Of a DNA stretch of 64,000 bases, positions 1-51,778 are shown one piece after another. The position numbers were made by a program, and so were the translations under genes. Location of the stretch: positions 99,140,001-99,204,000 of the forward strand of contig NC_086107.1 of NCBI RefSeq assembly GCF_963921235.1. Reading direction: 5' to 3'. Each line of letters begins with the position of its first letter. Positions within the stretch are counted from its first letter, which is position 1. Source of the DNA: Mobula hypostoma (taxonomy: Eukaryota). The notes beneath the pieces were generated by a model. That model made no database searches and was not told the origin of the DNA. It saw nothing but the letters and a program-made list of their open reading frames with translations.

Positions 1-376
1 CGGGAAACACTTCGTATCAGCTAATTATTATTTCATTGTGACGGTACTTAACTCCATTCTTTTTGTCGTAGCACTGGTCGAGACTTGAGCAAAGCACAGC
101 AACATTACGCTACCTGCTTGCATTCGGCCTTGCCTGAGAAATTGGGCTGTCGAGTCAACTCACACTGAAGGCTAGCGGCATTCGTTTTATATTTAGTTAT
201 CCCTTTCAGCCGTAGTGTAGGCTTCGTTTTCCATTTGATAGTTAACGGCCCTGTTTGGCCTAGCGTTTATAGTTTTCTTCTCCCTCTAAACTCTGTTTTG
301 CTTTAAAGTCTGTGAACTATCGACACGCCTCAGTGTCCCTCACCCGGCGCTTGGGCCACGTCTGAACGTAGTGACA
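1..376 (+). mobile_element. Probable 3' part of an LTR cut by the window edge
   Basis: Ends in ...GTAGTGACA, a typical LTR CA terminus; non-coding. 5' end and TSD not visible. Confidence 0.4.
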
Positions 377-3870: not shown

Positions 3871-5003
3871 AAAATGCTGGAGGAGCTCAGCAGGCCAGGA
3901 GCATCAATGGAAAAGAGTAAAGTGTCGAGGTTTTGGGCCGAGACCCTTCTTCAGGACTGGAAAAAAGCTGAGAAGTCAGCGGAAGAAGATGGGGGGAGGG
4001 GGGAGGGAAGGAAGAAGCACAAGGTGGTAGGTGAAAGGTGAAACTGGGAGGGGGAGGGGTGAAGTAACGAGCTGGGGAGTTGATCGGTGAAAGTGATAAA
4101 AGTCTGGGGGGGGCGAATTCTGATAGCAGACAACAGAAGGTCATGGATGAAAGGGAAGGGGGAGGAACACCAGAGAGAGGTGATGGGCAGATAAGAAGAG
4201 AAGGTGTGAGAGGGGCAACAGGAATGGGGAATGGTGAAGGAGGGGGAGGGGGCAATTACCGGAAGTTTGAGAAATTGATGTTCATGCCATCAGGTTGGAG
4301 GCTACCCAGACGGAATATAAAGTATTGTTCCTCCAACCTAAGTGTGGTCTCATCCTGGACTGACATGTCAGAATGGGAATGGGGAGTAGAATTGAAATGG
4401 GTGGCCACCTAGAGATCTTGCATTTTCGGGCAGATGGAATGAAGATGCTCAATGTCAGGTCTCACTGGTATACAGGATGCTACAATGGGAGTACCAGATA
4501 CAGTAGATAACCACAACAGACTCATAGGTGACATGGTGCCTCACTTGGAAGGACTGTTTGGGACCCTGAGGGAGGAGGTGTAGGGGCAGGTGTAGCACTT
4601 GTTCTGCTTGCGAGGATAAGTGCCAGCAGGGAAATCAGTGGGGAAGGACGAATGGACAAGGGAGTCATGTAGGGATCGATCTCTGTGGGAAGTGGAAAGG
4701 CAGAAGAGGGAAAGATGTGCTTGGTGGTGGATTCCATTTTGAGATAGCGGAAGTTACGGAGAATTATGTGCTGGATGCGGAGGTGTGTAGGGTTGTAGGT
4801 GAGGACAAGGGGAATCCTATCCATGGTGTGGCAGCGGGAGGCTTGGGTGAGGGCAGACGTGTGTGAATGGAAGAGATGTGGATGAAGGCAGCATTGATGG
4901 TGGAGGAAGGAAAGCCCCTTTCTTCAAAGAAGCAGGACATCTCAGTTGTTCTGGAATGAAAAGAAAAAGCTCCATCCTGAGAGCAGATGAAGTGGAGAAG
5001 CAA
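3871..5003 (-). mobile_element. Penelope-like element fragment (RT C-terminus/linker, decayed GIY-YIG region, 3' repeat)
   Basis: ORF 4522-4824 DRIPLVLTYNPTHLRIQHIILRNFRYLK...TKHIFPS and 4764-5006 FFEERGFPSSTI resemble the Penelope linker; decayed VIYCI-like motif near 4490-4510. Confidence 0.8.
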
Positions 5004-5917
5004 CATTTTTTATTGCTGCATAGACCAACCATGTTCTGAGCAGGACATTTTCACACAGGCTGAAAATTGCGCAGCACTTTAAATGCTTTTTTTTTGTAAT
5101 ATACATACTGTGAATATTTAGACTGGAAATTGGAAATTTTTTTCTTTTGAATTTATTTATTAATTGAAGGAAATACAGTACAACAAAGAAAATCTTTCAC
5201 ATTTTGTAAACATTTTCTCATTTGTTTTTGTTGCAGCTGCATGGCCACGAAGGCTATGTGCATGGGAGCATTTTAGTTACTGCGTGGCTGCGCACCCGTG
5301 CAGCTTAGAGGGAACAGTGCCTTCTCCTGTGCCACACTGTTTTGCTTTCTGTTTTATTCTAACAATTGTACTGATGCTGTTTCCTGAAATCAAACAGAAC
5401 TCAAAAATATTATTAGTTTTATTCCCAGTTTTCTGACCTGCTTTCATCTTTATCTGGCCTGTCTGACTGCTCCCTTCCCTCACTCAATCTCTCCACCTCA
5501 TGAGATAGATCATGACAAACATCTATAACAAGCCTGCAGCCTCCCACCTTGCCTCTTGTAGTGACTCCCATTTTGTTCTCCTGGTTCCTCCATCTTTGTT
5601 GTTTTTGCTCTGAGACTTTACAGCAAAGGGGCCTCCCAACCTGTCCTCTCAGTTCGTCAGTCATAGCTTCCTTTCCACCATAGAGTCCTTGACCACATCT
5701 CCACTCTCTCAGCCTCTCCCCTTCTGGATGAAACAAGAATGGAGTTCCTTTAGTCCATGCCTTGAACCCCACCCGATTCCACTTCAACAGATCAATTCCT
5801 ATCACCTCCAGCCAGATTCCACGCCAGAGTCAAAGTTGAGTTTATTGTCATCTGCACAAGTACATGTATGCACAGGTGCAATGAAAACTTTAGTTGCAAG
5901 AGCATCACAGGCACATA

Positions 5918-5989: not shown

Positions 5990-8808
5990 ATATCACTGGA
6001 GTCGAGCATGAGTGTACACAGGTCAGTTCCTGTACACCACTGGAATGCCATACAGGCCCCCACCTTTATTTCAAGGCTCAGGTTGTGATTGACCATCTCA
6101 CCTCGTGCCCACTGGACTTGCATGTAGTGTCACAGGGCGCTCCGCAGGAAGGACAGCAGTGGCTGCAGCTGCAATGCCCTGCCATCCCACGGTCTTCTAC
6201 CTGCTGCCATCCAGGAGAAGCCCATAGTCCTTGCCCTTCCACCCGTCACTCAGGACTCCAGCACCCAGGACATTTCGCTGCTGTCATCAGGAGCCTCAGG
6301 ACTCACACCATCAGGTTCAGGAACACTTGTCACCCCTCAGCCACCAGGCTCTGGAACCAGACAGGATAACTTCACCCGCCCCATCACTGAAATGTTCCCA
6401 CAACCTATGGACTCACTTTCAAGGACTCTTCATCTCATGTTCTCAATATTTATTGCTTATTATTATTATTTCTGTTTTTCTTTCTTTTTGTATTTGCACA
6501 GTTTGCTGTCCTTTGCACATTGGGTGTCTGCCCTGTTGGGTCGGTCTTTCATTGATTCTATTATGGCTATTAGATTTATTGTGTATGCCTACAAGAAAAT
6601 GAATCTCAGGATTGTATCTGACCACATACATGTACTTTGATAGTAATAAGCTTACTTTGAACTTACTGCTTACCAGGGACTTTGGGGAAAAAAGGAGAGG
6701 ACACTACCTGTGTAACTCACCGACTGCACCCATGTTAATGGACCGCTCTGTTCTGTTGTCAGTATTACCTGAGTTTTTGGGACAATTCTGGGCTGACTCA
6801 GGATGCCTTGCTGTGTAGTTGTGCAGTCCCAACTCCCAGCGGCACTCTGAAACATCTCCTCCTGCCTTGTTATCCAGGGCAACTTTCAACAACCATCCTG
6901 CGTGTGCTTGGAGCTTCACGCCATGGAATCACTCCCGCTCGGGGATGCAGGTCGGAGTGTCCCCAGAGGTGGGGTTTACGCAGAATTTCAAAGGAATTCT
7001 GGAGAGACAGGGGAGCACAGAGGAATAGATCTAACACCAGGACGCTTGAGGGCATGGCTGCCAGTGTTGGAGGGGGGGGGGCGGCTGAAGAGATAGCAGA
7101 TAAGAGAATTGGATGGATGGATGTAACAAAAATCTCACTCACATAGGTTGCTACAGCAAAGGCTGGCGCACAGAGTGCAGTCACACACACTTGGTGGTCC
7201 CTCTGGCCTGGTTTTGGATGGGAACGTGGCAAGCTGGATCACAAATTGGCTCAGTGACGGGTAGTAGAGGGCAATGGGCAACTGGCATTTTAGTGAATGG
7301 TGGTCGTGTACAGCGGAGGTTCCACAGGGTTCAGCCCTAGACCCCTTGCCTTTCGTGGTTTATATCTTTATTTAAACTCATGGACAACCATCAAGAAGAG
7401 TGATTCTGGGAAATAAAGGGTTAACCTATGAGGAGTGTTTGATGGTGCTGGGAATGTACTTGCTGGAGATTAGAAGAATGTAGGGGTGGTGTGGAATCTC
7501 ATTGAAACCCATCGAAAACTGAAAGGTCTAGATAGAGTGGATGTGGAGAGGGTGTCACTTTAGAAGAGAGATGAAGAGGAATTCCTTTAGCCAGAAGGTT
7601 GAATGCATTGCCACAGATGGCCGTGGAGGCCAAGTTATTGGATATGTTTAAAACAGAGGTTGATGGGTTCTTGATTGGTAAGGAGATCATAGATTATAGG
7701 AGAATGGGGTTGAGTGGGGCAATAAATCAGTTGTGATAGAGTTGTGGAGCAGACTTGATGGACTGAATGGCCTAATTCTGCTCCTATGTCTTATGGTCTT
7801 AGATGGTAAAGAGGAAGCTCTAGATCACCAGAAGATACCAATGGACCAGTTCAGTGAGTCAAATAATAGCAAATGGAACATAATCTAGAGACAGAAGCGG
7901 GGAGGGAACTGGTTAACCTAGAGGAATCCCACACATTCCATGAGGCGGACATACTAATTCCTTACAGAGGATGCCGGGATTGAATTTTCTGAATTCCATC
8001 ACCCTGAGCTTTCAGACCGTTGTGCTAACTGCTACACTACCATGGTGCCCTCATTGTCGGTCGGGGTTGACCATGGATGTTGTCCTAGCTGTCTAGATAC
8101 TCATGCCAGCGTGATACAACATGGTGGGCAATGTTCTTCCCACGTAGCAAGCTCCCCCTCTCCACACATCTGATGAACCCGAAGGAATGAGGAACGGCAG
8201 AGACCCATACAGTTTGGCTCCAGCTGCGTCCCAGGAGTTGCCAGTCTGCATTGAACTCAACGTAGGACTCCAGCTCTGGATTTTTTCTAAGGGTTTACTC
8301 CCGAAGCCTTCCCCATGAGTGGGTATAGCCGCAAGGCAGCGGAGGTTTGAGATCAGAGTTTTCCTTCTCCTAGATGAGCTGCCAACCACGGCTGATGAGC
8401 CCCATCTGCCCGGAGTGACTGGTTTTAAGGTGCTGGTAACCCACCTTTGCCCCTTCTCCTGTCAGTAGAAACAGTTCCACCAGGCTTAATAACTAAGCCA
8501 CATGTGAAGGCCAGGAGGTGGACTTGGTTGTCGGAGGCTATTTGAGGTGCACGTCATTGGGAATATTTAATAGGTAGTGGGAGCTCGTCCCCATTACCAA
8601 CCCTGGCTATAACAACCTTAAGGAACCCAGATAACTTTATCTGTAGTTTATCTCCATGGCAACCCTACCTCACCCCATCAAAGTTCAGATCCTTCCCACT
8701 CCCACCCTCTCTGCAACTGAAAAACTAACATGTTTTCTCCTTCAACCAAAACACATAAAAGTTGCTGGTGAACGCAGCAGGCCAGACAGCATCTCTAGGA
8801 AGGGGTAC

Positions 8809-8844
8809 AGTCGACGTTTCGGGCCGAGACCCTTCGTCAGGACT
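8809..8844 (-). ncRNA. Minimal type I hammerhead ribozyme motif in a Penelope-derived repeat
   Basis: Minus strand AGUC-CUGACGA-A-GGG(UCUCGG)CCC-GAA-ACGU-C/GACU: core boxes, 4-bp stem I, 3-bp stem II, palindromic mini stem III, GUC triplet. Confidence 0.75.
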
Positions 8845-9007
8845 CCTTTTTTATGTGTATTGCTTGAAATTCCAGCATCTGCAGATTTCCTTGTGTTTAT
8901 GTTTCCTCCTTTCTCCTTTCACAGTGGCTACCTGACCAGCTGAGTGATTCCGGCAGTTTTTTGATTTTGTTCATTTTCAAGCTGCTTTTTATAAGACCCA
9001 AATTCCT

Positions 9008-9372: not shown

Positions 9373-11199
9373 CAGATTCCTAAAGAACTGTCTCGGCTGT
9401 CTCCCTTCAAGTAACTGATGGCTTTCGCTGGCACTTACTACTGCCAGCTGCACATAAAATGCTGGAGAAACTCAGCAGGTCAGGCCACACCTTTGAAGGG
9501 GAATAAACAGCTGACATTTCAGGCTGCGGCCCTTTATCAGGGCCAGAAAGAATGGGGCAGAAACCAGAATAAGAAGGTGAGGGGAGTGGAGGGGTACCAT
9601 TTGTGTGCGTCTCTGATCATTGTGCATTCAATCTGATCGGATCTATATGCTGGCTCCGTATGTTCACTGCATTCTGTTTACTCTGCGCGCACGTGCTGTG
9701 GACTTGCTGTGTGAGTATTCTGTGCGTTTGGTTCTTGCAGTTCCACCATGGATGGTCCCTAGCTGTGGAAGGAGGAGACTTGGGCATAGGGCTAGCAACC
9801 CCATCCCGTAAAAGCCCAGTGTTACAGAGACACCAACAGAAGATCCAAAGACCTCTTCCCTGGGAGAGGAAAGATCTGGGGATACACCTGGGGAGAACTT
9901 AAAAGACTGGCCCAGGACAGAGGACTCTGGCGAACGGCTGTTGGCAACCTGTGCCCCAGCAGGGCTGATGGGCTTAACTAACCAACAAACTATACCAGGA
10001 TTCTCCAGCTCACTCTGTCTTCCCCGTGTCCAGTTATTCTGCGCTGACTCCAGCTGCTCACTGTGTATCGCCCACTCCCTGTGACCGTTGTGTGTGCACA
10101 CTCACTGAGTGCACCCTGTACACTGCTCGCTGTGCCAGGAGACCAAAGAGAGTCTTTCTTCAAAGTGACGGTGTTCCTACAGGTACCTGTATTTCTGTTT
10201 GTGTACGTCTGTGTCTGTGTGTAGTTCTTCATTAATTCTATTGTATTCCTTTGTTCTACTGAGAATGTTTGCAAATGAATCTCACAGTAGGTAATGAGAA
10301 CATACTGTATGTACTAGGATAATAAATTTACTTTTGAGCTTTGAACTTTTTAAATATCAATATAAACTTTATTCATAATAAAAGATTATTTATAATACTA
10401 AGTCATGCAGAATCTTTTCATTTCTTAGTTCATAGACAATATGTTAAGCGGGGTCTCAGCCCAAAATGTCGACTGTACTTTTTTTCCATAGGTACTGCCT
10501 GGCCTGTTGAGTTCCTCCAGCATTTTGTGTGTGTTGCTTTGGATTTCCAGCATCTGCAGATTTTCTCTTGTTTGTGTTAAGTAGGTGTTCTGACCAATAG
10601 CACAGTTTCCACTCATGTGGTCCCCAGGGGTGGTACACTGCCTGTGCCACAATAACTGGAGGGCTGCCTCACCCAACCTGGCCCCTCGTTGACCCTCCCT
10701 TCACAGTGCAACCTTTTATCCCTCTCTGACAGCACCCGGTCAACGCCCTTACCCTGTTGCTTGTGTTCTGCACCCCCCTCTTGGACTGCGCCAATCAACA
10801 ACCTGTCTATCCAGGGACAGAAATAACCTCAGATGCCCACCATCCACACCAGGAAAGGGGAGCAGGAGTGACTGCAGAGGCTGGTAAGTCACTCATCGGG
10901 AGACACAAGGGTAAACAATAACACAGGGTAATTGCCTCTCTAATTTTAACTTCGAATAAAGACATTAAATTGTTTTTAGGAGAAATTCTTCAGATGCTGG
11001 AAATCCATGCAACACACACAAAATGCTGGAGGAACTCTGCAGGTCAGGAGGCATCTATGGAAATTAATACGCAGTCCATGTTTCAGGCAGAAACCCTTCT
11101 TCAGGACTTAAATCGTTTGCCTTATAAAACACACAGCTCTAATAAATTCAGTGTTTGTTCCCGTTCCCTAAATGGATAACCTTTAGAATTCCCAAAAGG

Positions 11200-16203: not shown

Positions 16204-16778
16204 CAACGCCCTCCCTTTTCAATCCATCTGGCCCAGCGTTTAAATCTAAGACCTGGGCCCTGTCACATCGACACAGTCTGGACCTGGACCCCACACTCAC
16301 ACTTTGGCCCATACCTGACCTTTCCGAATCGGCCCGGCACTTAAATCAAACTTTGCTCTCGGTTCAGGCGGACAGGTCCCGAATTTTTCTCTCCTCCACT
16401 CCGACTTTGCTGCGCTCTGCTTGCTTCAAATAGGCCTTGAACCTGCCTCGACTTCTTGAACCTCGTCCCAACTTCTCCTCGCCCCCACACACTTCAACCC
16501 TCAACTCAATCTTGCCTCTTCATCGTTTGCAGTGATTGTTTACCGTAATTTTTTTTTACAGAAAATATGTTATTGATAAAGTATTTCTTATAATTCTTGT
16601 TTTGTTAACACCAGTGAGTTGTTCTCGCCTTCAGCAGTGCCATCATTCCCTGGATTTGCACTTGACAGAAAGGGAAGGACTGTAGGTCATGGACCAATGG
16701 TTGGTGGTCAATGTAATGACTTTACAGCGAGACTCAGGCACACAGACAGGGTGGAAAGATGAGCTGGTTGGAGACTGT

Positions 16779-16820
<42 letters not shown>
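16779..16820. repeat. (CA)n microsatellite
   Basis: About 20 CA units, expanded from the ACACAC head of the Penelope-derived repeat. Confidence 0.95.
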
Positions 16821-16823
<3 letters not shown>

Positions 16824-17959
16824 CGCTGCAGGAGCTCAGCAGGCCAGGCAGCATCTGTGGAGAAGGGTAATCAGTCAACGTTTCGGCCGAGACCCTTCAT
16901 CAGGGTGGAGACTAGTTTTCTTCACTCTTTTTCTCCTCATTCTGGGCACAAGCAGATCATCGATTCACACTTATCGGCCTCCTGCCCTCCCTTCCTGTTT
17001 CCACCCCTCTTCCTCTCTGTCTGTCTCTCGTTCCCAGTCTTTGACTGTAGTTTCCTGCATCACAGTCTCCCAGTCTCTTTGTTTTGTGTGTCAATTCCAA
17101 CACACGCAAAATGCTGGAGGAACTCAGCAAGTCAGGCAGCATCTGTGGAGAGGACGCAGGATCTTATATCAGTGCTGATGAGGGGTCTCAGCGTCTGTTA
17201 CTCTAGAGACGGCAATCCAGTTTGTCCAGTGTTTTCTCATAGCTACTAATCTCTATATCGGGTAGTCTCCTGGTGACCTGTTCTGCACCCTCACCAAAGC
17301 CTTCACATCCTTCCTGCGATGAGGTGACTAGAATTGCACACGATGCTAAAAACGTGGCCTAACTAAAGTTTTATTCAACTACAACATGACCTCTTGTCTG
17401 TTATACTCAGCACCCCAACCAATGAAGGCAACGATGCAAGCATTGACAGTCCTTTGTATTGACGAGTCTATTGATCTCTGTCACTGCCTTTTTACGTATC
17501 TTGTTCAGTACCCCTATCTTTATCTCTCTCTCCAATCACTCTCTCTCTCTGATCTCTCTCTCTCTCACTATGACTCAGTGCTTTCTGTTTCTCTCTTTCT
17601 CACTCACTGATTCTTCCTTGTTCTTTTTCCCTCTGTTTTTATTAACTCTCTCTTTATGTCCCTCACTCTCATCCTTTCTTAGTTTCACTCTCACTGTCAC
17701 TCCCTTTTTACCTGGCTACTTCACTTTTTTTCTCCGAAGACTGACAATCACTAAACCACAAATACCCTTCAGTTTCTGTCTCTCCTTCCCATCTTTTTCT
17801 CTTTCTCTCTCTCCCCCATCTCTATCTCTATCTATCTCTCTCCTACCTTCTCTCTCCCACTCTTTCTCTGTCTGTCTGTCTCTTTCTCCACCACGTTTTT
17901 CGCCTTCTCGAGTGCCCTCTATACCATACAGGCCTCAATGCTGGAGGAAAAGCGCTGTC

Positions 17960-18985
17960 AACTGCAGGCTGGCACTTCCACTGCATCCTGGATAATGGAC
18001 TACCTGACTGGCAGGCCACAGTTTGTGTCACACGTGGCTATAAGCAGCACTGGGGCTCCATAGGGGACTGTGTTGGCTCCCTTTTTGTTTACCCTGTTTT
18101 CCTCGGACTTTAGATACAACACTGAGTCAGGTCATCTTCAGAAATTCTCTGATGACTCAGAAATATTTAGGTGTATTAAGGGTGGACCGGAGGATGAATA
18201 CAGGGCCCCGGTGGAGGACCTTGTCAAATGGTGCAAGCTGAATCACCTGCAGCTCAACACCAGTAAGACAAAGGAGATGGTGATGGACTTTAGGAAGACT
18301 AAGCCTGCACCGCTCCTGGTTACTATTGATGGTGAGGACCTACAAGTACCTGGGGGTGCACCTGGATGACAGACTTGAGCGGGGCACCAACGCAGAGACT
18401 GTGTACAAGAAGGGTCAGAGTCATCTCCACTTCCTGAGGAGACTGAGTTCCTTTGCTGTATACAGGCCTCTCCTTCAGATGATCTACCTGCCTATTGTCG
18501 CCAGTACAATCTCCTATGTGGTGGTGTTCTGGGGGAATGGCATCAACATAGGTGATGCCAACAAGCTCAGTAAACTGACTAGAAAGGCTGGCTCTGTTAT
18601 AGGAGTCAAACGGGACACACTGGAGACTGTGGTAGAGCAAGGGACACTACGGAAAGTCCTGGCAATTCTGGACAATGTTTCTCACCCTCTGCATGCCACT
18701 TTGGCTAGACAGAGGAGCACTTTCAGTAATAGACCAAGACAACTGCTCTGCTCCAAAAAGTGCTATATGAGGTCATTCTTACCCTCGGCCATTAGGCTCT
18801 ATAATGAGTCAAGCTATAGCCAGGAAAGTGATGACTCCCTCCTGTTAGACTGTTTGTGTAACTTATTTTTTATTCTTTCTTACTTCTCTTCAAATATTTA
18901 TATATTTGTATATCTGTTCACTTGTAATGCTACTGTGACAGTGTAATCTCCTTTGGGATCAATAAAGTATCTATCGAGAGATCAA
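17960..18985 (+). mobile_element. Rex1/Babar LINE 3' fragment (RT), frameshifted
   Basis: LAPFLFTLFSSDF...LQKFSDD...LQLNTSKTKEMVMDFRK; YKYLGVHLDDRL; CAATAAAGTATCTATC tail. Confidence 0.9.
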
Positions 18986-19752: not shown

Positions 19753-21018
19753 GCCTTACTGAAGTCCATGTAGACAACATCCACTGCTTTCCTTTTTTCG
19801 AGGAGGTTACCAGGAAAGTGGATGAAGGGAAGGCAGTGGATGTTGTCTACATGGACTTCAGTAAGGCCTTTGACAAGGTCCCGCATGGGAGGTTAGTTAG
19901 GAAGATTCAGTCGCTAGGTATACATGGAGAGGTGGTAAATTGGATTAGATATTAGCTCAATGGAAAAAGCCAGAGAGTGGTAGTGGAGGATTCTCTGAGT
20001 GGAGGCCTGTGACTAGTGGTGTGCCACAGGGATCAGTGCTGGGTCCATTGTTATTTGTCATCTATATCAATGATCTGGATGATAATGTGGTAAATTGGAT
20101 CAGCAAATTTGCTGCTGATACAAAGATTGGAGGTGTAGTGGACAGTGAGGAAGGTTTTCAAAGCTTGCAGAGGGATTTGGACCAGCTGGAAAAATGGGCT
20201 GAAAAATGACAGATGGAGTTTAATACAGACAAGTGTGAGGTTTTGCACTTTGGAAGGACAAACCAAGGTAGAACATACAAGGTAAATGGTAGGGCATTGA
20301 GGAGTGCAGTAGAACAGAGGGATCTGGGAATACAGATACAAAATTCCCTAAAAGTGGCATCACAGGTAGATAGGGTCGTAAAGAGAGCTTTTGGTACATT
20401 GGCCTTTATAAATCAAAGTATTGAGTATAAGAGTTGGAATGTTATGGTGAGGTTGTATAAGGCATTGGTGAGGCCGAATTTGGAGTATTGTGTGCAGTTT
20501 TGGTCACCAAATTACAGAAAGGATATCAATAAGGTTGAAAGAGTGCAGAGAAGGTTTACAAGGATGTTGCTGGGATTTGAGAAACTGAGTTACAGAGAAA
20601 GGCTGAGTAAGTTAGGACTTCATTCCCTGGAGCGTAGAAGAGTGAGGGGAAATTTGATAGAGGTGTATTAAATTATGAAGGGTATAGACAGAGTGAATGC
20701 AAGCAGGCTTTTTCCAATGAGGCTAGGGGAGAAAGAAACCAGAGGACATGGGTTAAGGGTGAGGGGGGAAAAGTTTAAAGGGAACATTGGGGCTTCTTCA
20801 CACAGAGAGTGGTGGGAGTGTGGAATGAGCTGCCAGATGAGGTGGTAAATGCAGGCTCACTTTTAACACTTAAGAAAAACTTGGACAGGTACATGGATGG
20901 GAGGTGTATGGAGGGATATGATCCAGGTGCAGGTCAGTGGGACTAGGCAGAAAAATGGTTTGGCACAGCCAAGGGTCAAAAGGCCTGTTTCTGTGCTGTA
21001 ATGTTCTATGGTTCTATG
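19753..21018 (+). mobile_element. CR1/HER1-like LINE, 5'-truncated, with 5' fold-back
   Basis: [55 protein letters not shown] tail; splits the 3' tail of an older LINE (19415-19752 and 21019-21062). Confidence 0.92.
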
Positions 21019-23457: not shown

Positions 23458-25345
23458 TGTCTGTGAGAGATAGGCACAGAGGGAGAGCGAGAGATGTACA
23501 TGCACACTGTAAAAGACAGTCAGAGAGAGACAAACACAGACGCAAAGGACACACAAACACAGACATGAAGAGGAACAGGAGCTCGCCCAGGCAGCCTCAC
23601 TGCTAATCTGTGACCCTCCATCAGCCTGACTGCAGTGGGAAATGTTGCAGAGAATCAGCCTGCCAAACTGTGGCTACAGAGAACGTGTGATTGAAATTAG
23701 AAACTGTCTGTTGACTTCAATTGTCGCATCTGTATGCTCATTAAAGCTTCTGTCATTAAGGACCATGTGCATTCAGCTGTACACCTGGGAAGGGTCCATG
23801 GCAGGGTGCTTTAGCTGTGGCCTGTGTCCTCTATTCTTTAACGCAGGAGATTCTGCAATTGCTGGAAATCTTGAGCAACGCACATAATCTGGTGGGGGAA
23901 CTCAGCAAACCGGGCAGCATCTATGGAGGGAAATAAACAGTTGACATCACCCCTCTGTCAATGCTGCCTGACCTGCTGAGTTCCTCCAGCACGTTGTGTG
24001 TGTTCCTCTGTCGTTTATTCCCTGTCCAGGTGTGACCTTGGCCACGTTCTGGGGGTGAGCTTACTGCTTTTCACTAAAAAGTTCCCTTTCGCACCCACAG
24101 GTGCTTGTGTGGACGGGAAGCTCCCGTTTGTGTAGACACGGACGTGTGGCTTCCCAGCTGATAGAAAGTCACAGTGGGAACACGTCCCGCGGTTTCTCCT
24201 GCCAGGAATGGCTGGGTCCACTCTCCTGACCAAACATTGCGGCATTTAGGGACACAACAGGGAAGCAGTCGTTATTGCTGTTATCACTGGTAGTGTCCTA
24301 ATGATGGGATGGCCCAGAGCAGCCAGCACACTCCACAACCCAGGTTCGGTTCACCCTTGTCAGCCTGGCCCTCTCTATCCATTACAAAGTGCACGTGGAA
24401 CTGTTGTTCCGGATTTCCTGTCATGTTGCTGTAATGAGACCGAAGGAGACCATTCAGCCCATTGACCCTGTGCTAGCTGAGTCAAGCAATCCTGTCAGTC
24501 AAGCTTCCCACTCTTTTCCCTTTCTCCTGCAAATTATCCCCCCCCCCCCCCATGGCCATCCAGTTGCAATAAGATGCAGGAGCCGAATTGGACTATTCAC
24601 CCTATCGAGTCTGCTCCATCATTCAATCATAGCAGAATTATTATCTCTTTCAAGCCCATTCTTCTCTGTAGCCTTTGACAGCCTTACGAATTAAGAATGT
24701 ATTAACCTCTGCTTTAAATACACCCAATGATTTGAACCCTCAGCCATCTGTGGCAATGAATTCCACAGATTCATCACCCTCTAGCTAAAGAAATTCCTCT
24801 CTTCTCTGTTCCTTCTGTTCTGAGGCTGTGCCCTCTGGTCCTAGATTCTCCCACTGGAAACACCCTCTCTACATACATTCTATCTAGGCCTTTCAGTGAC
24901 TGGTAAGTTTCAATGAGACTCACTCCTCATTCTTCTAAACTCCACCCTCAGTACACTGGTCTGTTTCTGCCTGCCCTCCAGAGAGTGAATCAGAGCCGGA
25001 GGTCTCCGTGGGTCGAGCAGCATCTGTGGGAAGAGAGGAATTGTCAACGTTTCGGGTCAATCAGGGCTCACTGAGTTCCTCACAAAGACGTTGTATTATT
25101 CCACATTCCAGCATCCAGATAAGTCCATGGTGCTGCTTTTTGCAGAACCCAAACCAGGGTAGGACTTTTACGGTGAACAGCCGGGCTTGGGCACGCAGAG
25201 GAGGAATGACGAGTCAGCGTAGGTGCGTACGTGGAGTGTGAAAGATTACAGCCTCAGTCTGAATATCTGAATGGGACTGCTCCTCAAGTCCTGGTTTGCT
25301 TCAGCCTCACGCCCCTGATCTACCGTCACCTGATGCTGAGGGAGA

Positions 25346-26979: not shown

Positions 26980-27245
26980 GTTAGTCCATAAAACTCAGAG
27001 GTCATTGGCAAGCCGGGTGTAGCATTAGTCAGCTTCACAACAGCCCTTGGCAAGAAGCTGTTCTTCAGTCTTACTGCCTTGGCTGAGATGCTTCTGTATC
27101 TCCTGCCGGGTGAACAGGCAGTGTCCGGGATGGGATGGGTCTTTAATAACGTTGGCAGCACGTAGGCACCCAGAGTTGTAGATAGTCTCCAGGTCCAGTA
27201 GTTGAGCCCTGATGGTGTGCTGAGCCGTCCTAATCATCCACTGGA

Positions 27246-28446
27246 GTGTCTTGTGATCTGTCTTGCTACCTGCTGAACCGTGACTACGCCCGCCTGGACA
27301 AGCCAGCGAGCGCTGTGAGGGTCACGTTTTTTGACTTCTCCAGTGTGTTCAACACCATCCGCCCTGCTCTGCTGGGGGAGAAGCTGACAGCGATGCAGGT
27401 GGATGCTTTCCTGGTGTCATGGATTCTTGACTACCTGACTGGCAGACCACAGTACGTGTGCTTGCAACACTGTGTGTCCGACAGAGTGATCAGCAGCACT
27501 GGGACTCCACAGGGGACTGTCTTGTCTCCCTTTCTCTTCACTATTTACACCTCGGACTTCAGCTACTGCACAGAGTCTTGTCATCTTCAGAAGTTTTCGG
27601 ATGACTCTGCCATAGTTGGATGTATCAGCAAGGAAGATGAGGCTGAGTACAGGGCTACGGTAGGAAACTTTGTCACATGGTGTGAGCAGAATTATCTGCA
27701 GCTTAATGTGAAAAAGACCAAGGAGCTGGTGGTAGACCTGAGGAGAGCTAAGGTACCAGTGACCCCTGTTTCCATCCAAGGGGTCAGTGTGGACATGGTG
27801 GAGGATTACAAACACCTGGGGATACGAATTGACAATAAACTGGACTGGTCAAAGAACACTGAGGCTGTTTACAAAAAGGGTCAGAGCTGTCTCTATTTCC
27901 TGAGGAGACTGAGGTCCTTTAACATCTGCCGGACAATGCTGAGGATGTTCGACAAGTCTGTGGTGGCCAGTGCGATCATGTTTGCTGTTGTGTGCTGGGG
28001 CAGCAGGCTGAGGGTAGCAGACACCAACAGAATCAACAAATTCATTTGTATGGCCAGTGATGTTGTGGGGATGGAACTGGATTCTCTGACGGTGTTGTCT
28101 GAAGAGAAGATGCTGTCCAAGTTGCATGCCATCTTGGTCAATGTCTCCCATCCACTACATAATGTACTGGGTGGGCACAGGAGTACATTCAGCCAGAGAC
28201 TCATTCCACCGAGATGCAACACAGAGCATCATAGGAAGTCATTCCTGCCTGTGGCCATCAAACTTTACAACTCCTCCCTTGGAGGGTCAGACACCCTGAG
28301 CCAATAGGCTGGTCCCGGACTTATTGCATAATTTACATATTACTATTTAACTATTTATGGTTTTATTACTATTTAATTAATTATGGTGCAACTGTAACGA
28401 AAACCAATTTCCCCCGGGATCAATAAAGTATGACTATGACTATGAC
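27246..28446 (+). mobile_element. Young Rex1/Babar LINE, 5'-truncated, with uninterrupted 353-codon RT/C-terminal frame (27246-28307)
   Basis: FFDFSSVFNTI, GTPQGTVLSPFLF, LQKFSDD, LNVKKTKELVVD; CAATAAAG(TATGAC)3 tail. Confidence 0.95.
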
Positions 28447-38794: not shown

Positions 38795-40703
38795 AAAGGT
38801 TCAAAAAACTAGGTAATGATAGAGATCTAGAAGATTATAAGGCTAGCAGGAAGGAGCTTAAAGATGAAATTAGGAGAGCCACGAAGGGGCCTCGGCAGAC
38901 AGGATTAAGGAAAACCCCAAGGCATTCTACAAGTATGTGAAGAGCAGGAGGATAAGACGTGAGAGAATAGGACCAATCATGCGCGACAGTGGAAAAGTGT
39001 GTATGGAACCGGAGGAGATGGCAGAGGTACTTAATGAATACTTTGCTTCAGTATTCACTATGGAAAAGGATCTTGACGATTGTAGGGCTGACTTGCAGCA
39101 GACTGAAAAGCTTGAGCATGTAGATATTAAGAAAGAGGATGTGGTGGCACTTTTGGAAAGCATCAAGTTGGATAAGTCACCAGGACCAGACGGGATGTAT
39201 CCCAGGCTACTAGCGATTATCTTTGCATCATCAATGATGACGGGGGAGATTCCGGAGGATGGGAGGGTTGTGGATGTTGTTCCCTTATTCAAGAAAGGGA
39301 GTAGGGATAGCCCAGGAAATTATAGACCAGTGAGTCTTACTTCAGTGGTTGGTAAGTTGATGGGGAAGATCCTGAGAGGCAGGATTTATGAGCATTTGGA
39401 GAGGCATAATATGATTACACATAGTCAGCATGGCTTTGTGAAAGGCAGGTCGTGCCTTACGAGCCTCATTGAATATCTTGAGGATGTGACTAAACACACG
39501 ATGGAGGTAGAGCAGTAGATGTAGTGTATATGGATTTCAGCAAGGCATTTGATAAGGTTCCCCATGCAAGACTTATTGAGAAAGTAAGGAGGCATGGCGT
39601 CCAAGGGGACATTGCTTTGTGGATCCAGAACTGGCTTGCCCACATAAGGCAAAGAGTGGTTGTAGATGGGTCATATTCTGCATGGAGGTCAGTGACCAGT
39701 GGTGTGCCTCAGGGATCTGTTCTGGGACCCTTACTCTTTGTGATTTTTATAAATGACCTGGATGAGGAAGTGGAGGGATGGGTCAGTAAATTTGCCGATG
39801 ACAAAAAGGTTGGGGGTGTTGTGGATAGTGTGAAGGGCTGTCAGAGGTTACAGCGGGACATTGATATGATACAAAACTGGGCTGAGAACTGGCAAATGGA
39901 GGTTAACCCAGATAAGTGAGAGGTGGTTCATTTTGGTAGGTCAAATATGATGGCAGAATATAGTTTAATGGCAAGACTTTTGGCAGTGTGGAGGATCAGA
40001 GGGATCTTAGGGTCCTAGTCCATAGGAAATTCAAAGTTGCTATGCAAGTTGACTCTGTGGTTAAGAAGGCATACGGTGCATTGGCCTTCATCAATCATAG
40101 GATTGAGTTTAAGAGCTGAGAGGTAATGTTGCAGCTATATAGGACCCTGGTCAGACCCCACTTGGAGTACTATGCTAAATTCTGGTCGCCTCGCTACAGG
40201 AAGGACATGGAAACCATATAAAGGGTGTGGAGGAGATTTACAAGGATGTTGCCTGGATTGGGGAGCACGCCTTATGAGAATAGGCTGAGTGAACTCGGCC
40301 TTTTCTCCTTGGAGCGATGGAGGATGAGAGGTGACCTGATCGAGGTGTACAAGATAATGAGAGGCATTGATTGCGTGGATAGTCAGAGGCTTTTCCCCAG
40401 GGCTGAAATGGCTAGCACGAGAGGGCACAGTTCTAAAGTACTTGGAAGAGGTACAGAGAAGGTGTCAGGGGTAAGTTTTTTATGCAGAGAGTGGTGAGTG
40501 TTTGGAATGGGCTGCCGGCGACGGTGGTGGAGGCAGAAACAATAGAGTCTTTTAAGAGACTCCTGGATAGGTACATGGAGCTTAGTAAAATAGAGGGCTA
40601 TGGGTAAGCCTAGGTAGTTCTAAGGTAAGGACATGTTCGGCACAGCTTTGTGGGCCGAAGGGCCTGTATTGTGCTGTAGGTTTTCTGTGTTTCTGTGTTT
40701 CTA
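38795..40703 (+). mobile_element. CR1/HER1-like LINE, 1.9-kb 5'-truncated copy with stops and frameshifts
   Basis: [65 protein letters not shown] tail; splits an element at 38722-38794 and 40704-40905. Confidence 0.95.
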
Positions 40704-41633: not shown

Positions 41634-41908
41634 ACCAAAGGGAATTGAGGGACTGCTATGCACTCTGTCTCACCGAGATATGGCTTACACCAAAGGGAAT
41701 TGAGGGACTGCTATGCACTCTGTCTCACCGAGATGTGGCTTACACCAAAGGGAATTGAGGGACTGCTATGCACTCTGTCTCACCGAGATGTGGCTTACAC
41801 CAAAGGGAATTGAGGGACTGCTATGCACTCTGTCTCACCGAGATGTGGCTTACACCAAAGGGAATTGAGGGACTGCTATGCACTCTGTTTCACTGAGATG
41901 TGGCATAC
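41634..41908. repeat. 55-bp minisatellite, 5 units
   Basis: Units start at 41634, 41689, 41744, 41799 and 41854; no spacers. Confidence 0.97.
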
Positions 41909-43206
41909 ACCAGCTCCACCTGACTGTGCCTTTCAACCTGACGATGGACTGTATGGTGTCCTCGGACAAAGCAAGAGGTGGAGAGGGTCTGCTTCCTAAT
42001 CAACTCTTTGAGGTGCTTGGATGCGACGGTCCTAGTGAGTTCCTGTTTACCCGACTTGGAATATCTGATGGTGACCTGCCGTCCGTACCACCTGCCTTGG
42101 GCGTTCGCTTCAGCTATCCTGATGGTAGTCTACAATACATCCCGTCCCAGGCAGACTGCAATCAGTGAACTATACTCAGTGGCCAACAGCCTTGATATGG
42201 GGCAATCTGAAGCCTTGTACATCATTGCTGGTGACTTCCTCCAGGCCAACTTCAAGTGTGCGTTACCAAAAAACTACCAGCATGTCTCCTGTCCCACCAG
42301 GGGCCCAAACACCCCTGGCCATTGCTACCCAACCGTCAAAGATGCCTACCAAGCCACCCCCACCTTGGTAAATCAGACTACCAGGCTGTTCTCCTTCTTC
42401 CTGCATACAAACAAGCTGAAATGGGAGTATCCAGTACAGAAAGCCATACAGTGCTGGTGTGAGGAAACAAGTGAGCTTCTATGTGACTGCTTTGAGTCAG
42501 TAGGCTGGTCTAATGTTCAAAACCTCAGCCAACCTAGATAAGAACTTTATCATGGTCTGGAACTTTATCAAGAAATAAGTGTAGTAAATAAGTCAATCCG
42601 AGTATTTTCAAATTGGAAAACATGAATAAACTGGGAGATCTTCATTAAAAGTTCATTAGGAGTTTGAGGAGATTTGGTATGTCATCAAAGATTCTAGCAA
42701 ATTTCTACAGATGAACCTGTAGATCTGTAGAATATTCGAACTGGTTGCAACACCATCTGGGATGGATGTGTCAATGCACAGGATTGGAAGAAGTTGCAGA
42801 GGTTTCTAGACTCATCTATCTCCATCACGGGCACTAGCCTCTCCACCATAGAGATCATCTTCAAAGGAAGGTCCCTAAAGAAGGTGGCATCCATCATGAA
42901 GGACATTACCATCCAGATATGGCCTGTTCTAATAACTACCAATAGGAAAAGGTACAGGAGCCTCAAGATACACGCTCAATGTTTTAAGAACACCTTCTTC
43001 CTTTCTGCCTACAGATTTTTAAACAGATAATGAACCTACCTCACTATTTTGCTCTTTCTGAACTATTTTTTATATATTTTCATTGTAACTTATAGTAATT
43101 TTTATGTACTGCGCTGTCCTGCTGCAACAGCATGACAAATTTTGTGACATGTCTCACTGAAGTCCAGGACTACAGCTTTCAGATCAGGTTCCCTGACCTA
43201 TACAAG

Positions 43207-43784: not shown

Positions 43785-46013
43785 CAAGAAATTGAGATAA
43801 CAGCTCCCACAAGGCTCCCAGGGATGCCAAGGAACAACAGCAGTACAAAATTAAGTCCCAGACCAGCTCTCAATTGTGGCAAGGCTTACACACTGTAACA
43901 CAAATGCAGGCAGTATTGCCGACAACAGTGCATTCCGTCCTGATGAGCTCAATGCAGTCTAGCATGTTTTGAACATCTACAGTCGCCGTTGCAGACATGA
44001 GATCAGTCTTCCTGAGTGAACGCAAGGAAAGCATCTGGCCCAGATGATGCTGCCGGTCGGGTCTTTAGATCCTGCACACATCAGCTGGTGGGGATACTTG
44101 CAGATATTTCTAACCTCCCCCTACTTCAATCTGAGGCTTCTACCTAATTTAAGGAAACCACTATCATCCTGGTAACTAAGAAAAATGAAGTAACATCTTA
44201 ATGACTACCACCCAATGATTCTAGCATCATCCATCATGGTGTGCTTCACAGGGCTGGTCATGGCATGTGTCACCTCCAGCCTCCCAGACAACATTGACCC
44301 ACTGCAATTCACCTCCTGCCAAAATGGGTCTATGACAGACACCATCTTCCTGGCCCTACATTCATCTCTGGAGCATCTGGACAGTAAAGATGCCTACATC
44401 AGACTCTCATATATCGACTTTAGCTCTCTCTTCAATACTATTATTCCATAAAATATAGGAGCAGAATTTAGACCATTTGGCCTGTCAAGTCTGCTCCATC
44501 ATTTCATCATGGCTGATCCAATTTTCCTCTCAGCCCCAATCTCTCCTCATCCCTTCATGCCCTGACCAATCAAGAATCTATCAACCTCTACCTTAAATAT
44601 ACATGAAGACTTGGCCTTCACAGCAGCCTGTGGCAAAGAATTCCACAGATTCACCATTCTATGGCTAAAGAAATTCCTCCTCATCTCCATTCTAATAGGA
44701 CGTCCCTCTATTCTGAGCAAACCCGTCTCCAAACTCCTAGACCTGATGCTCAGCGTCTCCTCCTGCAACTGGATCCTTGACTTCCTAACGTACAGACCGC
44801 AATCAGTAAGGATTGGCAGGCACGTCAGAGGGTGGTATACCCGTGGAGCTCATTGCCATGGGCAGCTGTGCGGGCTAAGTCATCCTGTTTATTTAAAGCG
44901 GAGGTTGATAGGTTCTTGATTAGTCAGGGTGTCAAAGGTTACGGGGAGAAGGCAGGAGAATAGGGTTGAGACGGATAATAAATCAGCCATCATGGAATGA
45001 TGGGGCAGAGTCGATGGGCAGAATGGCCTAATTCTGCTCCTTTCTCTTATGGTCTTATGGACTAACACCTCCACCACAATAAACCTCAACAAGGCTGTGC
45101 CCTCAGCTCCCTGCTTCACTTCCTATACACTCCCAACCCAAGTGGTCAGACTCTGGTTTAACTCCAGCTACATGTTCACAGCTGACACCTCTGAATTTCG
45201 AATAGCAATGAGTCAGAGTCCAGGAAGGAGACGGAGAGCCTCGTGACACGGTGTCATGACAACAACCCTTCCCTCAATGTCAACATAAGAGCTGGTCACT
45301 GACTTCAGGAAGGGGGCAGTGCCCGTGCTGAAGTTGAGAGGGATGTCTAAGATGTAAACATCACTAAGATGTAAGCCTGTCCTAGTCCAATCACGATGAT
45401 GCCACACCAGCGCCTCTAGTTGAGGCCAAGGAAGTTCGGCAGGTCCTGCTGACCTTCACCAATTTTTATCGATGCACCATAGAAAGCAAAGTATTTAGCT
45501 CGGTTAGGCAACTGCTCTGTACACGACAACAAGAAGCTACAGGGAGTGTGGAGACAGCCCACCGCGTCTCAGGAAATACCCTCCCCACCATGGACTCTGT
45601 CTACACTTCTCCCTGACTCAGTAAAGCTGGCAGGATAATCAAAGACCCCACCCACGCACTGGACAGTCTCTCTTCTCCCCCCCCACTATAGGGTAGAGAT
45701 ACAAAAGCCTGGAAGCACAGACCACCAGGCTCACAGATAGCATCTGTCCAGTGTTACAAGATTATTGACTGGACCTCTTGTCCAATAGGATAGTCTGTTG
45801 ACCTCACATTCTATCTCACCATGGCCTTGGCACCTTATTGTCTGCCTGCACTGAGCTCTCTCTGTCACTGTTACACTTCATTCTGCATTCTGTTCTTCTT
45901 CTCTCTTGCATCGCCGTGATGTAATGATGTGAAGAATGTGAAGTACTGGGTGACCTGCAGGACAAAGTTTTTCACTAACAAGAGGAAATCTGCAGAGGCT
46001 GGAAATCCAAAGC

Positions 46014-46045
<32 letters not shown>

Positions 46046-46519
46046 GGTGCTGGAGGAACGCAGCAGGCCAGGCAGCATCTATGGAAAAGAGTAAACAGTC
46101 GACGTCTCGGGCAGAGACCCTTCAACAGGACTGTAGCTCGGTACACGTCACAATAATAGACCAATTTTCTGATTTACAGCGCGATAGAAGCTGTCCTGGC
46201 TGGAGGTCTGCACTTTCGGGCGTCCCTGCCTGATGGGAGAGAGAAGAGAGGATGGCCAGTGTGTGGCTTGGGTCTTCGATAATGCTGGCTGCTTTCCTGA
46301 GGCAGCAAGGTGGAGACAGAGTCTATGGAGGGGAGGGTAGCTCCTGTGACGTGCTGAGCTGTGCCTCTTGTGGTCATGGGCAAAGCAGTTGCCCTACCAA
46401 GCTGTGATGCATCTGGTGCATCAATAGAAATCGATGAGGATCATCGGGATCCTCGTCTTCTGAAGAAGCAGAGGCGCTGCTGAGCTTTCAGGCAAAGGCC
46501 CCGTGCGCGCAGGGACGAG

Positions 46520-47400
46520 AAACACAAAATGCTGGAAGCCCTCAGCAGGTCAGGCAGCGTCCTGGGGAAGGGAACAGAGTCGACGCTTCATCAGAACTGG
46601 GGGAATGAGCTACCAAGCTGCTGGGGAAGGGGGAGGGGAGGGGTGAAGAGGACAGAGGAAATATCTCTGATAGGACGCAGACCCAAGTTGTCAAGGTAAC
46701 AAATGACTTTAAGTGAATGGTAGTTGGAGACAGATTAGAGAAAAGCCCTGAATTGAAACAGAAAGGCTCAGCTGTATCTGTCTGAGAGAAGGGCTGGCCA
46801 GCTGAAATTGTTGGATATCGAATCCTGGTGACTGCAGCGTGCCCAGATGCTGTTGCCTGAGGTTACACTGACTTTCGCTGGAGCAACATAAGAGACTGGA
46901 GGAGGGAAGGTCAAAGTGAGAGTGGAACGGAGAATTAAAGGGGCAGGCAACTGGAAGCTCAGGTACATCTCCACAGACTGAAGTCTGTCCGCTGCAGAGG
47001 ACTCACTCCAACTGCCTGTGGTTTGTCCCGTGGAGAGGTCGCAGTGTGAAGACAAAATGAAACAGACTCACCTGGAGGAAGTTCAAGTGAATCCCGGCTT
47101 CACCTGGCAGGACTGTTCGGGTCTGTGGTCGGCGGGAAGGGAAGAGGGGAAAGACTAGATGCTGCAGCCTCCATGGCCACGTTGGGAAGTTTGGTGGGAA
47201 GGTGGAGATGGAGAAATGAACCAGCGAGTTGGAGAGGGAACGTGGAAAAGAGGGAGGGGAGGAAGTGTCAGATCAATAGCAGAACTTGTAGAGGGTGATG
47301 AGGAGAAAGGTGCAAGAGAATGGGGAAATCCTTCCTTGCTCTTGTGGAGTGGGAGTGAAAGCAGAGCTAAAGCAAATGGAGGTAATGCAGTTGAGGTAAA
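46520..47400 (-). mobile_element. Old Penelope-like fragment
   Basis: Terminal repeat at 46520-46600 plus decayed sequence resembling 4250-5000. Confidence 0.55.
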
Positions 47401-47621
47401 GGAGCAGTCAATGTTCCGGGCTGAAAACTGATGATGTCTCGGCCCAAAACGTCGACTGTTCACTTCCTTCTGTCGACCGACATGCTGAGCTCCTCCAGTA
47501 TTTTGTGTGTGTGCGTGTCGCTGAAGGTTTTCAGCATCTGTCGATCTCTTGTGTCTCTGTGATGCTGTTGAGAGACCTGGCATCTCAAGTAGAGAGAAAA
47601 GGGAAGTCAGATTAAAGGGAA

Positions 47622-47862
47622 CACAAGAAAATCTGAGGATGCTGATAATCCAAAGCAACACACAAAATGCTGGAGAGACACAGCAGGCCAGGCAGCATGA
47701 ATGGAAACGAATAAACAGTCGGCGTATCCGGCCGACACTCTTCGTCAGGACCCTTCATCTGTGCTGAAGAAGGGTCTCGGCCCGAAGTGTCAACAGCCGA
47801 CTCTTTTCCAGAGATGCTGCCTGGCCTGCTGAGTTCCTCCAGTATTTTGTGTGTGTTGCCTC
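47622..47862. repeat. Head-to-head pair of Penelope-derived terminal repeats (imperfect palindrome)
   Basis: CACACAAAATGCTGGAG...GCAGC facing GCTGCC...CTCCAGTATTTTGTGTG. Confidence 0.8.
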
Positions 47863-48145
47863 GGTTTAAAGGCACTGATTTGGAAAGTCAACACAAGATA
47901 TGATGGAGACAGAGCAACCAGGTAGAATCACAGTTCTTGCAGTCAACAGGGTGAAAATAGGTATTGGCATTGTTTTTTTATTATTTTCATGTGTACCAAG
48001 ATATACTGAAAAACTCTGGGTGCCATCCATGAGACCATAAGAGCAGAATTATGCCATTTGGTCCATCAAATCTGTTCTGCCATTCCATCAGGTTGAAGTA
48101 TTATCCCCCTCATCCCCATTCTCCTGCTCTTTCCCCATAACCTTT

Positions 48146-48950
48146 GGAGAATGTGTGGTCCAGATAGCTGTGGGATAGGGCTGTGTTGGAAAAAGTGTGG
48201 TCAGGATATCTGTGGGATAGAGGCTGTGTTGGAGAAGGTGTGGTCAGGATATCTGTGGGATAGGGGTTGGCTTGTCACGGATATCAGTAGCTAACACATC
48301 CCCTGAGATGGGGATAGGATGTTCAGAAAGAGAAGGGAAGAATCAGACGTGGACCATGTGAGAGTATGAGAACGCTGGAGGAAAGCAGCAGAGGTGATGA
48401 AATGTTCAAGTTGTGTATGGGTGTGGGAAGCAGCCCTGATACAGTCATCAGTGTAGCAGGGGAAGGCCTGAGGGTGGGGGGTTGCTGAGCAGGCCTATCA
48501 CTGGGATTGTTTTACATATCCAGTGAAGAGACAGACAACTTGGAGCTGCGGGAGTTCCCAGAACTCTGCTTTGGACACAGTGAGTGGGATGAACGTAGGA
48601 ACAGTTCAGTGTGGGATTGAGCTTGGCTGGGCGAGAGGGATTGGTGGTGGAAGCAAAACCGGTTGGTCATCTGCTGGAGGAAGAGGTGGAGGTCTCCCAG
48701 ACCCTCCTGGTCTGGGACGAAGGTGTAATGGTTTGGGCACCCGTGTGAAAACCAGCCGGATGAGATCAGAATACTGGAAAGTGTCAAAGTGGAGGATGGT
48801 ATCAAAGGTGGCAGGGGTTTAAGTGGGATGGAATTGGACGAGGAGAAAAAGGATGGTGTCAAGATAGGAAGACAGAGTGTTGAAAGGCAAGAGCAGACTG
48901 AAACCCTACCCGTGGACCCTGGGGGGGAAGCAGGTGCGGGTTGCACGGCG
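48146..48950 (-). mobile_element. Decayed Penelope-like RT fragment, with 3 x ~42-bp tandem repeat at 48146-48265
   Basis: Minus strand TACACTGATGACTGTATC (YTDDCI, YxDD-like) near 48437-48455. Confidence 0.55.
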
Positions 48951-51555: not shown

Positions 51556-51745
51556 TCATCTACTTTTCTAGCTGGCTTTTGAATATCACTAATCTGGCTA
51601 CCTCAACCACAATTTCTGGCAACTCATTCCAGATACCTACCACCCTTTGTGTGGAGAAGCTGCCCCCCGATGTCCCTTTGACCTCATATTTATGCCTTCT
51701 TGTTTTTAATCATCCCATCTCTGGGGACAAAAAGACTGCTTTTAC

Positions 51746-51778
51746 CTGAAGAAGGGTCTCAGCCCGAAACGTCGACTG
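51746..51778 (+). ncRNA. Hammerhead core motif with truncated stem I
   Basis: CUGAAGA-A-GGG(UCUCAG)CCC-GAAACGUC-GACUG; the 5' CAGUC strand is absent. Confidence 0.5.

Follow-up and report, generated by a model that had tools for sequence, protein, structure and literature searches.

The focal hammerhead and its insertion

The feature at the centre of this study is a predicted type I minimal hammerhead ribozyme at positions 8809-8844, minus strand, of a 64,000-nucleotide stretch of Mobula hypostoma DNA (the window), recognised by its sequence motif and with a predicted cut between 8813 and 8812. Read along the minus strand, helix I (8841-8844 with 8809-8812; 4 bp) is followed by the first core box, CUGACGA (8840-8834), a bulged extra A at 8833 between A9 and G10.1, stem II (8832-8821, with 8832-8829 paired to 8824-8821 as 4 bp around a 4-nt loop), the GAAA box (8820-8817) and an ACGU palindrome (8817-8814), whose palindromic positions 15-16 replace helix III. 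C17 (8813) stands after C-G-U, and the 3' arm, 8812-8809, comes next. The location and cut site of the original prediction were borne out by the sequence, by a strict pattern and by the published consensus, and the short helix I was also present, except that the focal copy begins GAGUC rather than CAGUC and has 4 bp, not 5. The strict pattern used on the window (CUGANGAH-G-N7..16-CGAAACGUC) gave two matches, 8813-8840 minus and 51746-51773 plus, against none in 100 shuffles.

According to the available part of the source, the minimal hammerheads of Penelope-like elements (PLEs) share a CUGANGAH box and a G10.1-C11.1 pair; the additional base lying between positions 9 and 10.1 is conserved, positions 15.2-16.2 form a palindrome, and many of the listed examples end GAAA-CGUC (PMC4209133). 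The G10.1-C11.1 pair and an unpaired base before G10.1 were both found at the focal copy. It had been doubted that the ribozyme could be active with an extra A after CUGANGA, a doubt that proved unfounded, as CUGANGAH is described as a conserved hallmark of the group (PMC4209133) and the A is present in 16 of 17 aligned copies.

An Rfam scan of the window returned no hammerhead at E<=10, and 11 unrelated weak matches. Because the motif has no helix III, this result was not counted against it. The hammerhead call is accordingly supported by motif and covariation rather than by an Rfam model. Single-copy folding z-scores were non-significant (z -1.5 to +0.7; 7 sequences), which is uninformative for a dimer-type motif. 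Helix I pairing was assessed in 12 chosen sequences, namely six window copies that have the 5' arm and six metagenome loci of distinct flanks, together about four independent families. Between unrelated families, each of the four pairs had changes in both of its bases. The proportion of paired cells was 90.6% and the covariation 0.553, compared with 23-47% (maximum 46.9%) and at most 0.127 when the arms were slid, and one locus (L010) was unpaired. The metagenome loci were drawn from 36 that share the core, found in metagenome contigs with a pattern that left helix I unspecified; all belong to unrelated families, certain loci recur in several records, and they were used only for helix I pairing and for the comparison of 5' ends. 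Four of them (L011, L027, L032 and L036) represent an unrelated family with the same core, occurring as opposite-strand pairs or inverted junctions, and with many 3' ends 113-120 nt past the motif. Pattern scans for further copies of the window's own family found none in viral contigs and none in prokaryote genomes.

The hammerhead is part of a unit of about 156 bp, in which an inverted tail, four linker bases, the hammerhead and a short 3' end lie between 13-nt target-site duplications (8730-8742 and 8899-8911, with one mismatch between them). Downstream of the hammerhead, the remainder of the pseudo-LTR occupies 8743-8808 on the minus strand and runs to the proximal (short) 3' end (HMM match 8844-8746, model 511-610), while on the other side an inverted, 5'-truncated piece of the same family with the distal tail occupies 8849-8898 on the plus strand (HMM match 8849-8899, model 596-647). 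A piece of a related PLE tail, older and more diverged, is found at 8916-8959 (plus), 17 nt past the focal insertion and just outside the duplication.

Copies of the family in the window

With a family HMM, 26 matches were found at E<0.01, of which 20 cover the hammerhead at least partly. This agrees with the family of about 20 copies originally proposed, and all 17 positions listed at that time are family copies. It is also the highest-copy repeat in a self-comparison of the window (10-21 partners per copy, compared with 6-7 for the next family), which upholds its description as the most abundant short repeat. The density of one motif per 3 kb holds as an average, but the distribution is uneven: of the 26 matches, a sole partial copy of the motif (23947) falls between 17.2 and 46 kb.

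Five of the 26 matches extend upstream into a shared pyrimidine-rich 3' untranslated region (UTR), and three of these reach remnants of an open reading frame (ORF). The longest PLE remnant (3871-5042, minus; tblastn E 7e-50 to homologue P0001, and 109 matches from homologues with reverse transcriptase (RT) and GIY-YIG domains) comprises a broken ORF end with RT thumb, Cys-rich linker and GIY-YIG (about 5042-4256; tblastn span 4259-5042), the 3' UTR (4255-3959), a mutated hammerhead (3958-3923) and a short 3' end. A second remnant, on the plus strand at 50945-51555, has an ORF end (tblastn E 7e-7, 50958-51171), 3' UTR, a mutated hammerhead (51419-51454) and a long tail; 245 nt of it align to the 3958 copy at 71% identity. 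The third, older remnant (46522-47029, minus) consists of the end of the endonuclease (tblastn E 6e-5, 46811-47029), 3' UTR, a hammerhead without stem II and a short 3' end; judged by strand and order, a remnant of the RT core at 48213-48533 (minus; tblastn E 2e-12) is probably the upstream part of the same copy. The two other extended matches are both on the minus strand. One, 2007-2329, combines some 220 nt of 3' UTR with a mutated hammerhead and a short 3' end. The other, 9450-9595, has about 50 nt of 3' UTR and a hammerhead mutated by G8>A and loss of helix I; at 700 nt, it is closer to the focal copy than any other copy on that strand.

Most of the remaining copies are short. Closest to the consensus is 51745-51875 (plus; pattern and HMM), with an intact core, a long tail and the 5' arm of helix I absent. 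Two minus-strand copies that begin at the 5' edge of the hammerhead are flanked by duplications: 10980-11108 (C17>G, long tail, 11-nt duplication with one mismatch) and 16772-16905 (7-nt duplication; the core is intact and has a GUU triplet, helix I is lost, and the TG run is expanded). A 7-nt duplication also flanks 10451-10573 (plus), which is truncated within stem II and has a long tail. On the minus strand, 45977-46133 (two core changes, long tail) and 52723-52817 (five core changes) start from the hammerhead edge, and 53004-53109 (two core changes) from near it, while the plus-strand copies 47428-47554 (long tail) and 1589-1670 are degenerate, as is an old copy on the same strand at 57384-57483. 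Three inverted pairs were found apart from the focal one: a head-to-head pair at 47620-47867, flanked by a 7-nt duplication, with the long tail on its minus half (47752-47620) and the short end on its plus half (about 47760-47867), and 55469-55638 and 23840-24009, each with the long tail on a single side.

Several smaller observations concern these copies. A 3' half copy (17154-17097, minus) adjoins a plus-strand piece (17168-17192) that holds only the 5' half of the hammerhead (E 0.17), and the junction within 17097-17192 resembles the palindromic 47752/47760 junction in that both turn at the CUGA box. In two copies (e.g. 16780-16820 and 46015-46043), microsatellites have arisen by expansion of the TG run close to the short 3' end. 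Three short copies (47428, 47752 and 47760) sit within 47029-48213, between the older minus-strand PLE ORF remnants, an arrangement which suggests that they were inserted into an earlier member of the family.

Other features of the window

Remnants of non-LTR retrotransposon reverse transcriptases were found on the plus strand at 27234-28304, 18284-18943 and 38874-39916, the first two with an ALKBH8_N Pfam domain. A separate repeat of about 650 nt is present in three copies of 75-85% identity (809-1486, 62268-62913 and 59298-59922), and a 55-nt minisatellite (5.1 copies, 98% matches) occupies 41634-41912. At 19765-19855 there is a near-perfect hairpin of about 35 bp, with weak matches to microRNA families below gathering scores.

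The host element

The last 50 residues of the ORF in 3871-5042 match two proteins of the stingray Hypanus sabinus (68% and 64% identity), both of which give weak GIY-YIG matches with scores below the Pfam cut-off. Such matches point to a ray-like cartilaginous fish as host. RT-associated Pfam domains are present in most of the 97 longer homologues, and the long homologues carry both RT and GIY-YIG. Homologues P0001 and P0002 have a C-x4-CxxC motif upstream of the GIY-YIG motif; in the 3958 window copy the CxxC is kept and the first linker Cys is mutated. None of the window's own 14 PLE ORF fragments matched Pfam, so that the PLE assignment was made via the homologues, and within the 64-kb window there is neither a full-length element nor an intact ORF. 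A CX2-5CxxC linker is given, in the available part of the source, as the mark of the Neptune and Nematis types of endonuclease-bearing (EN+) PLEs (PMC8557442). The repeat family most probably represents the pseudo-LTR and optional tail that form the 3' end of an autonomous PLE, which has a C-terminal GIY-YIG and a Cys linker of Neptune/Nematis type; this assignment by linker motif leaves Neptune and Nematis together. The Penelope origin and dimer-type minimal hammerhead put forward in the original prediction were both upheld, the copies being continuous with a PLE 3' UTR and ORF and the motif agreeing with the published consensus.

The family is very abundant, judged from the tens of thousands of contig pieces that align to the PLE remnant: between 69,257 and 80,396 per run in three DNA runs from three organisms, figures which are not copy numbers. 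All 30 bins are covered by pieces from each DNA run, and 29 of the 30 by those from a fourth run, guessed to be RNA.

Structure and origin of the insertions

The 3' ends fall into two classes, short (15/26) and long (10/26), with medians at 608 and 645.5 on the model, about 37 nt apart. In all four inverted pairs the tail of about 37 nt is found at one end only (chance probability 0.053). Target-site duplications scoring at least 7 were found at 6 of 19 insertions, with junctions placed by eye and the 23947 case doubtful, compared with 2 of 342 mismatched flank pairs. Short copies are about 95-135 nt long, and roughly 40% of all copies are units of defined length that begin at the hammerhead. 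Truncation at the 5' end, an inverted 5' piece and an optional one-sided tail of 30-40 bp are all described for PLEs in the available portions of PMC8557442 and PMC11167929. In the green anole element Poseidon_Ac, according to the latter, reverse transcription begins at two internal sites downstream of the hammerhead, the main template is uncut RNA, and the ribozyme needs protein (PMC11167929).

A single explanation covers these features. The PLE protein would nick genomic DNA and prime internally, downstream of the hammerhead, at either of two sites separated by about 37 nt, a step demonstrated for the anole PLE and deduced here from the two classes of 3' end. Most cDNA products would be 5'-truncated, part of them with an inverted second piece, and for that reason the hammerhead would remain in nearly every insertion. 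By analogy, the motif would be kept functional in the source elements, most likely cutting weakly, as a dimer and with the help of protein. Inserted copies would then decay neutrally, the focal insertion of about 156 bp having kept its core by chance. The probability of this explanation as a whole, from PLE 3' end and truncated insertion to neutral decay afterwards, is put at about 0.88.

The original prediction had also raised a retrozyme-like origin, in which tandem hammerhead units are cut to monomers, circularised and reinserted. Retrozymes are defined, in the parts of the two sources available, by at least two consecutive tandem hammerhead units together with circular RNA (bioRxiv 10.64898/2026.07.22.740005; PMC7229834), and the preprint reports a PLE pseudo-LTR origin, monomer copies and one sampled chondrichthyan, all of which would suit such an origin here. 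Two pairs of same-strand neighbours in the window, spaced 281 and 326 nt, might also be read that way, except that their cores or helix I are broken in both cases and what separates close same-strand copies is unrelated sequence. No tandem array of the unit exists in the window, and upstream the copies pass without a break into the 3' UTR and RT/GIY-YIG ORF of a PLE. A cut and circularised template should, moreover, often give copies beginning at the cut site, and none of the 26 starts within 3 nt of it. The retrozyme-like description accordingly fails, and an origin of this kind is considered very improbable. The same count led to the rejection of cut RNA as template.

Decay and selection

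The original prediction had named excess conservation of core bases as something to look for in the family, and none was seen. Excluding CpG sites, differences from the majority base were found at 13 of 140 core positions (9.3%) and at 108 of 1125 other sites (9.6%; Fisher p = 1.0), and at CpG sites at 7/31 and 26/122, respectively, a count from which N7 was omitted and in which the variable pyrimidine tract of 7 columns was scored separately. The focal copy does keep its core, as first noted, but it is not alone in this, as all 11 invariant bases are retained in four of the 17 core-spanning copies (8809, 11073, 16872 and 51742), of which the second has C17>G and the last two have lost the 5' arm of helix I. 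The neutral expectation, leaving aside three copies truncated inside the motif, is 4.2, and the focal copy is therefore without sign of selection. Pairwise divergence is 11% for the closest pair, with a median of 27%. These copies are old and decaying neutrally, and the view that the family is spreading self-cleaving motifs was overstated.

At N7, the free position of the core, the 17 copies are split T7/C5/A5, with G absent, an excess with P of 1.5e-4 to 1e-3 (0.014 to 0.087 corrected for about 90 columns). This gives a modest indication of several source elements whose differences were confined to positions at which the ribozyme tolerates change, as might be expected of selection at the level of the source. 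In the focal copy N7 is C, and the first core box can pair with the CGUC of the cut site. The resulting fold, which hides the core, is predicted at -11.9 kcal/mol, whereas the hammerhead scaffold reaches -7.9; for dimers, the best structure is at -32.1 and the double hammerhead at -14.7. These are nearest-neighbour energies without core contacts, and do not rule out activity. The focal copy by itself is probably silent or nearly so. In PMC4209133, a PLE minimal hammerhead failed to cut as a monomer and dimers cut weakly, and dimer cleavage of minimal hammerheads is also treated in a review (PMC6765202).

It could be asked whether the host has retained the 8809 copy as a minus-strand ribozyme that cuts with a partner RNA from another copy. 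This copy is the only one of the 20 to unite core, NUH triplet and helix I, and the family is so abundant that partners in trans could exist (the contig pieces counted above, which are not a copy number, run to tens of thousands). However, one intact copy is what neutrality predicts, the copy is 12% diverged overall, its N7 = C favours the core-hiding fold, the double hammerhead is far less stable than the best dimer by predicted energy, and the nearest same-strand copy is broken. Host exons were recognised in none of the 134 stop-free segments of the window. Retention by the host is thus regarded as highly unlikely, and the focal copy is best described as a new example of an already described motif, with its core kept by chance.

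5' ends at the edge of the hammerhead

Ten of the 26 matches have their 5' starts within a 15-nt window at the 5' edge of the hammerhead, and by eye two more do so. Given the truncation rate seen elsewhere, this pile-up has P of about 5e-8 (about 2e-6 corrected for 40 windows), with the provisos that the 15-nt window was picked after seeing the data and that the low-complexity 3' UTR could mask short extensions. Plain random truncation does not explain it. In copies 11108 and 16905 the duplications lie directly at the junction, and because they abut the hammerhead edge, this edge is a true insertion boundary; the upstream flanks of the two copies have no common sequence. A spliced-RNA origin of the short copies was excluded by the absence of a shared upstream exon and by these abutting duplications. 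In a second family, which has this core too and gave 34 matches among the metagenome loci, 5' ends are scattered without a pile-up, and one long-flanked copy ends within 15 nt of the hammerhead edge.

One possible source of such a boundary is a self-propagating, non-autonomous SINE-like element of 95-135 nt, transcribed from its own 5' edge and copied by the PLE protein in trans, and the pile-up, the duplications at the junction and the unrelated upstream flanks would all be in keeping with this. Against it, short and long copies are mixed on a tree (97 columns, star-like and without a strongly supported branch) and a clade of long copies only was rejected (p-AU 0.0135), near-identical copies are absent, the closest pair being the 11% one given above, and run-off cDNA of the autonomous RNA gives the same geometry. 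Neither a tRNA gene nor a sense-strand A box is present in the copies. No Pol III head was recognised in the copies as a tRNA gene or as an Rfam match to tRNA, 5S or SRP RNA, and the A-box pattern occurred at chance level, with only antisense one-mismatch matches in two copies. The term SINE-like, which had been suggested for the family, is therefore apt for shape only (some 40% of copies are short units of defined length from the hammerhead), and not as regards a tRNA head, a sense A box or a lineage of its own; the element itself is considered improbable.

The simplest reading of the pile-up suggests reverse transcription run-off at an RNA 5' end lying at the hammerhead edge, from uncut RNA. 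The edge carries an initiator-like CCAGTC and, following a long pyrimidine tract, a CAG; these are weak signals. A tentative elaboration, and on present evidence a doubtful one, is that internal priming in the 5' pseudo-LTR of the uncut transcript, followed by run-off at its end, yields cDNAs of strong-stop type, about 95 or 135 nt long, which insert alone. In the Penelope of Drosophila virilis, by contrast, a 75-nt intron begins 46 nt after the transcript start (PMC2377424) and its end meets helix I (PMC4209133); the edge in that element is therefore a splice acceptor and not a start.

Run-off, if true, would explain why a single family scatters many hammerhead-headed fragments. The ribozyme would then also lie right at the 5' beginning of the message, such that cutting would strip off a capped segment of roughly 33 bases and withdraw that RNA from the pool, making the ribozyme a brake rather than a processing step. 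The literature searched held no account of this family, of the pile-up or of the run-off idea; the family may be catalogued in Repbase or Dfam, which lay outside the search. The hammerhead motif, the host element and the dimer behaviour were already described between 2014 and 2024, and the focal copy looks like a neutral relic. Of more use is the record of cDNA ends that this very high-copy family holds, which bears on whether PLE hammerheads act on the template RNA in vivo.

Comparison with known systems

The closest counterparts of the motif are the PLE minimal hammerheads of Cervera and De la Pena (2014, PMC4209133), which, in the available part of that paper, are likewise of type I, with CUGANGAH, a bulged base before G10.1, GAAA-CG-UC without a separate helix III, and a U-rich flank. 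They too occur mostly as single copies from truncated PLEs, and as opposite-strand pairs 100-700 bp apart. The 4 bp of stem II seen here are at the short end of the published range, and the searched supplement (file 1 was outside the search) has no shark, skate or chimaera rows. The non-LTR retrozymes of metazoans (Cervera and De la Pena 2020, PMC7229834; Li et al. 2026, bioRxiv 10.64898/2026.07.22.740005) share the type I hammerhead, the link to a PLE pseudo-LTR and dispersed monomers, but differ in having tandem units, of which the window has none, whereas the copies here connect to a coding PLE.

Neptune and Nematis PLEs, in the portion of Craig et al. (2021, PMC8557442) available, share with this family the C-terminal GIY-YIG, a CxxC between the GIY and YIG boxes, the CX2-5CxxC linker, 5' truncation, inverted 5' pieces and a one-sided tail. 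Poseidon_Ac (Frangieh et al. 2024, PMC11167929) differs in several respects according to the part of that source available: the Poseidon clade is without the Cys linker that is present in the homologues here, its ribozyme activity has been measured and is protein-assisted whereas that of the present family is predicted, and no genomic 5'-end pile-up at the hammerhead 5' edge is reported for it. The two are alike, however, in that Poseidon_Ac has no RNA ends at the cut site, just as 0/26 copies start there in the window, and in that two RT start sites define an optional tail of 30-40 bp (PMC11167929).
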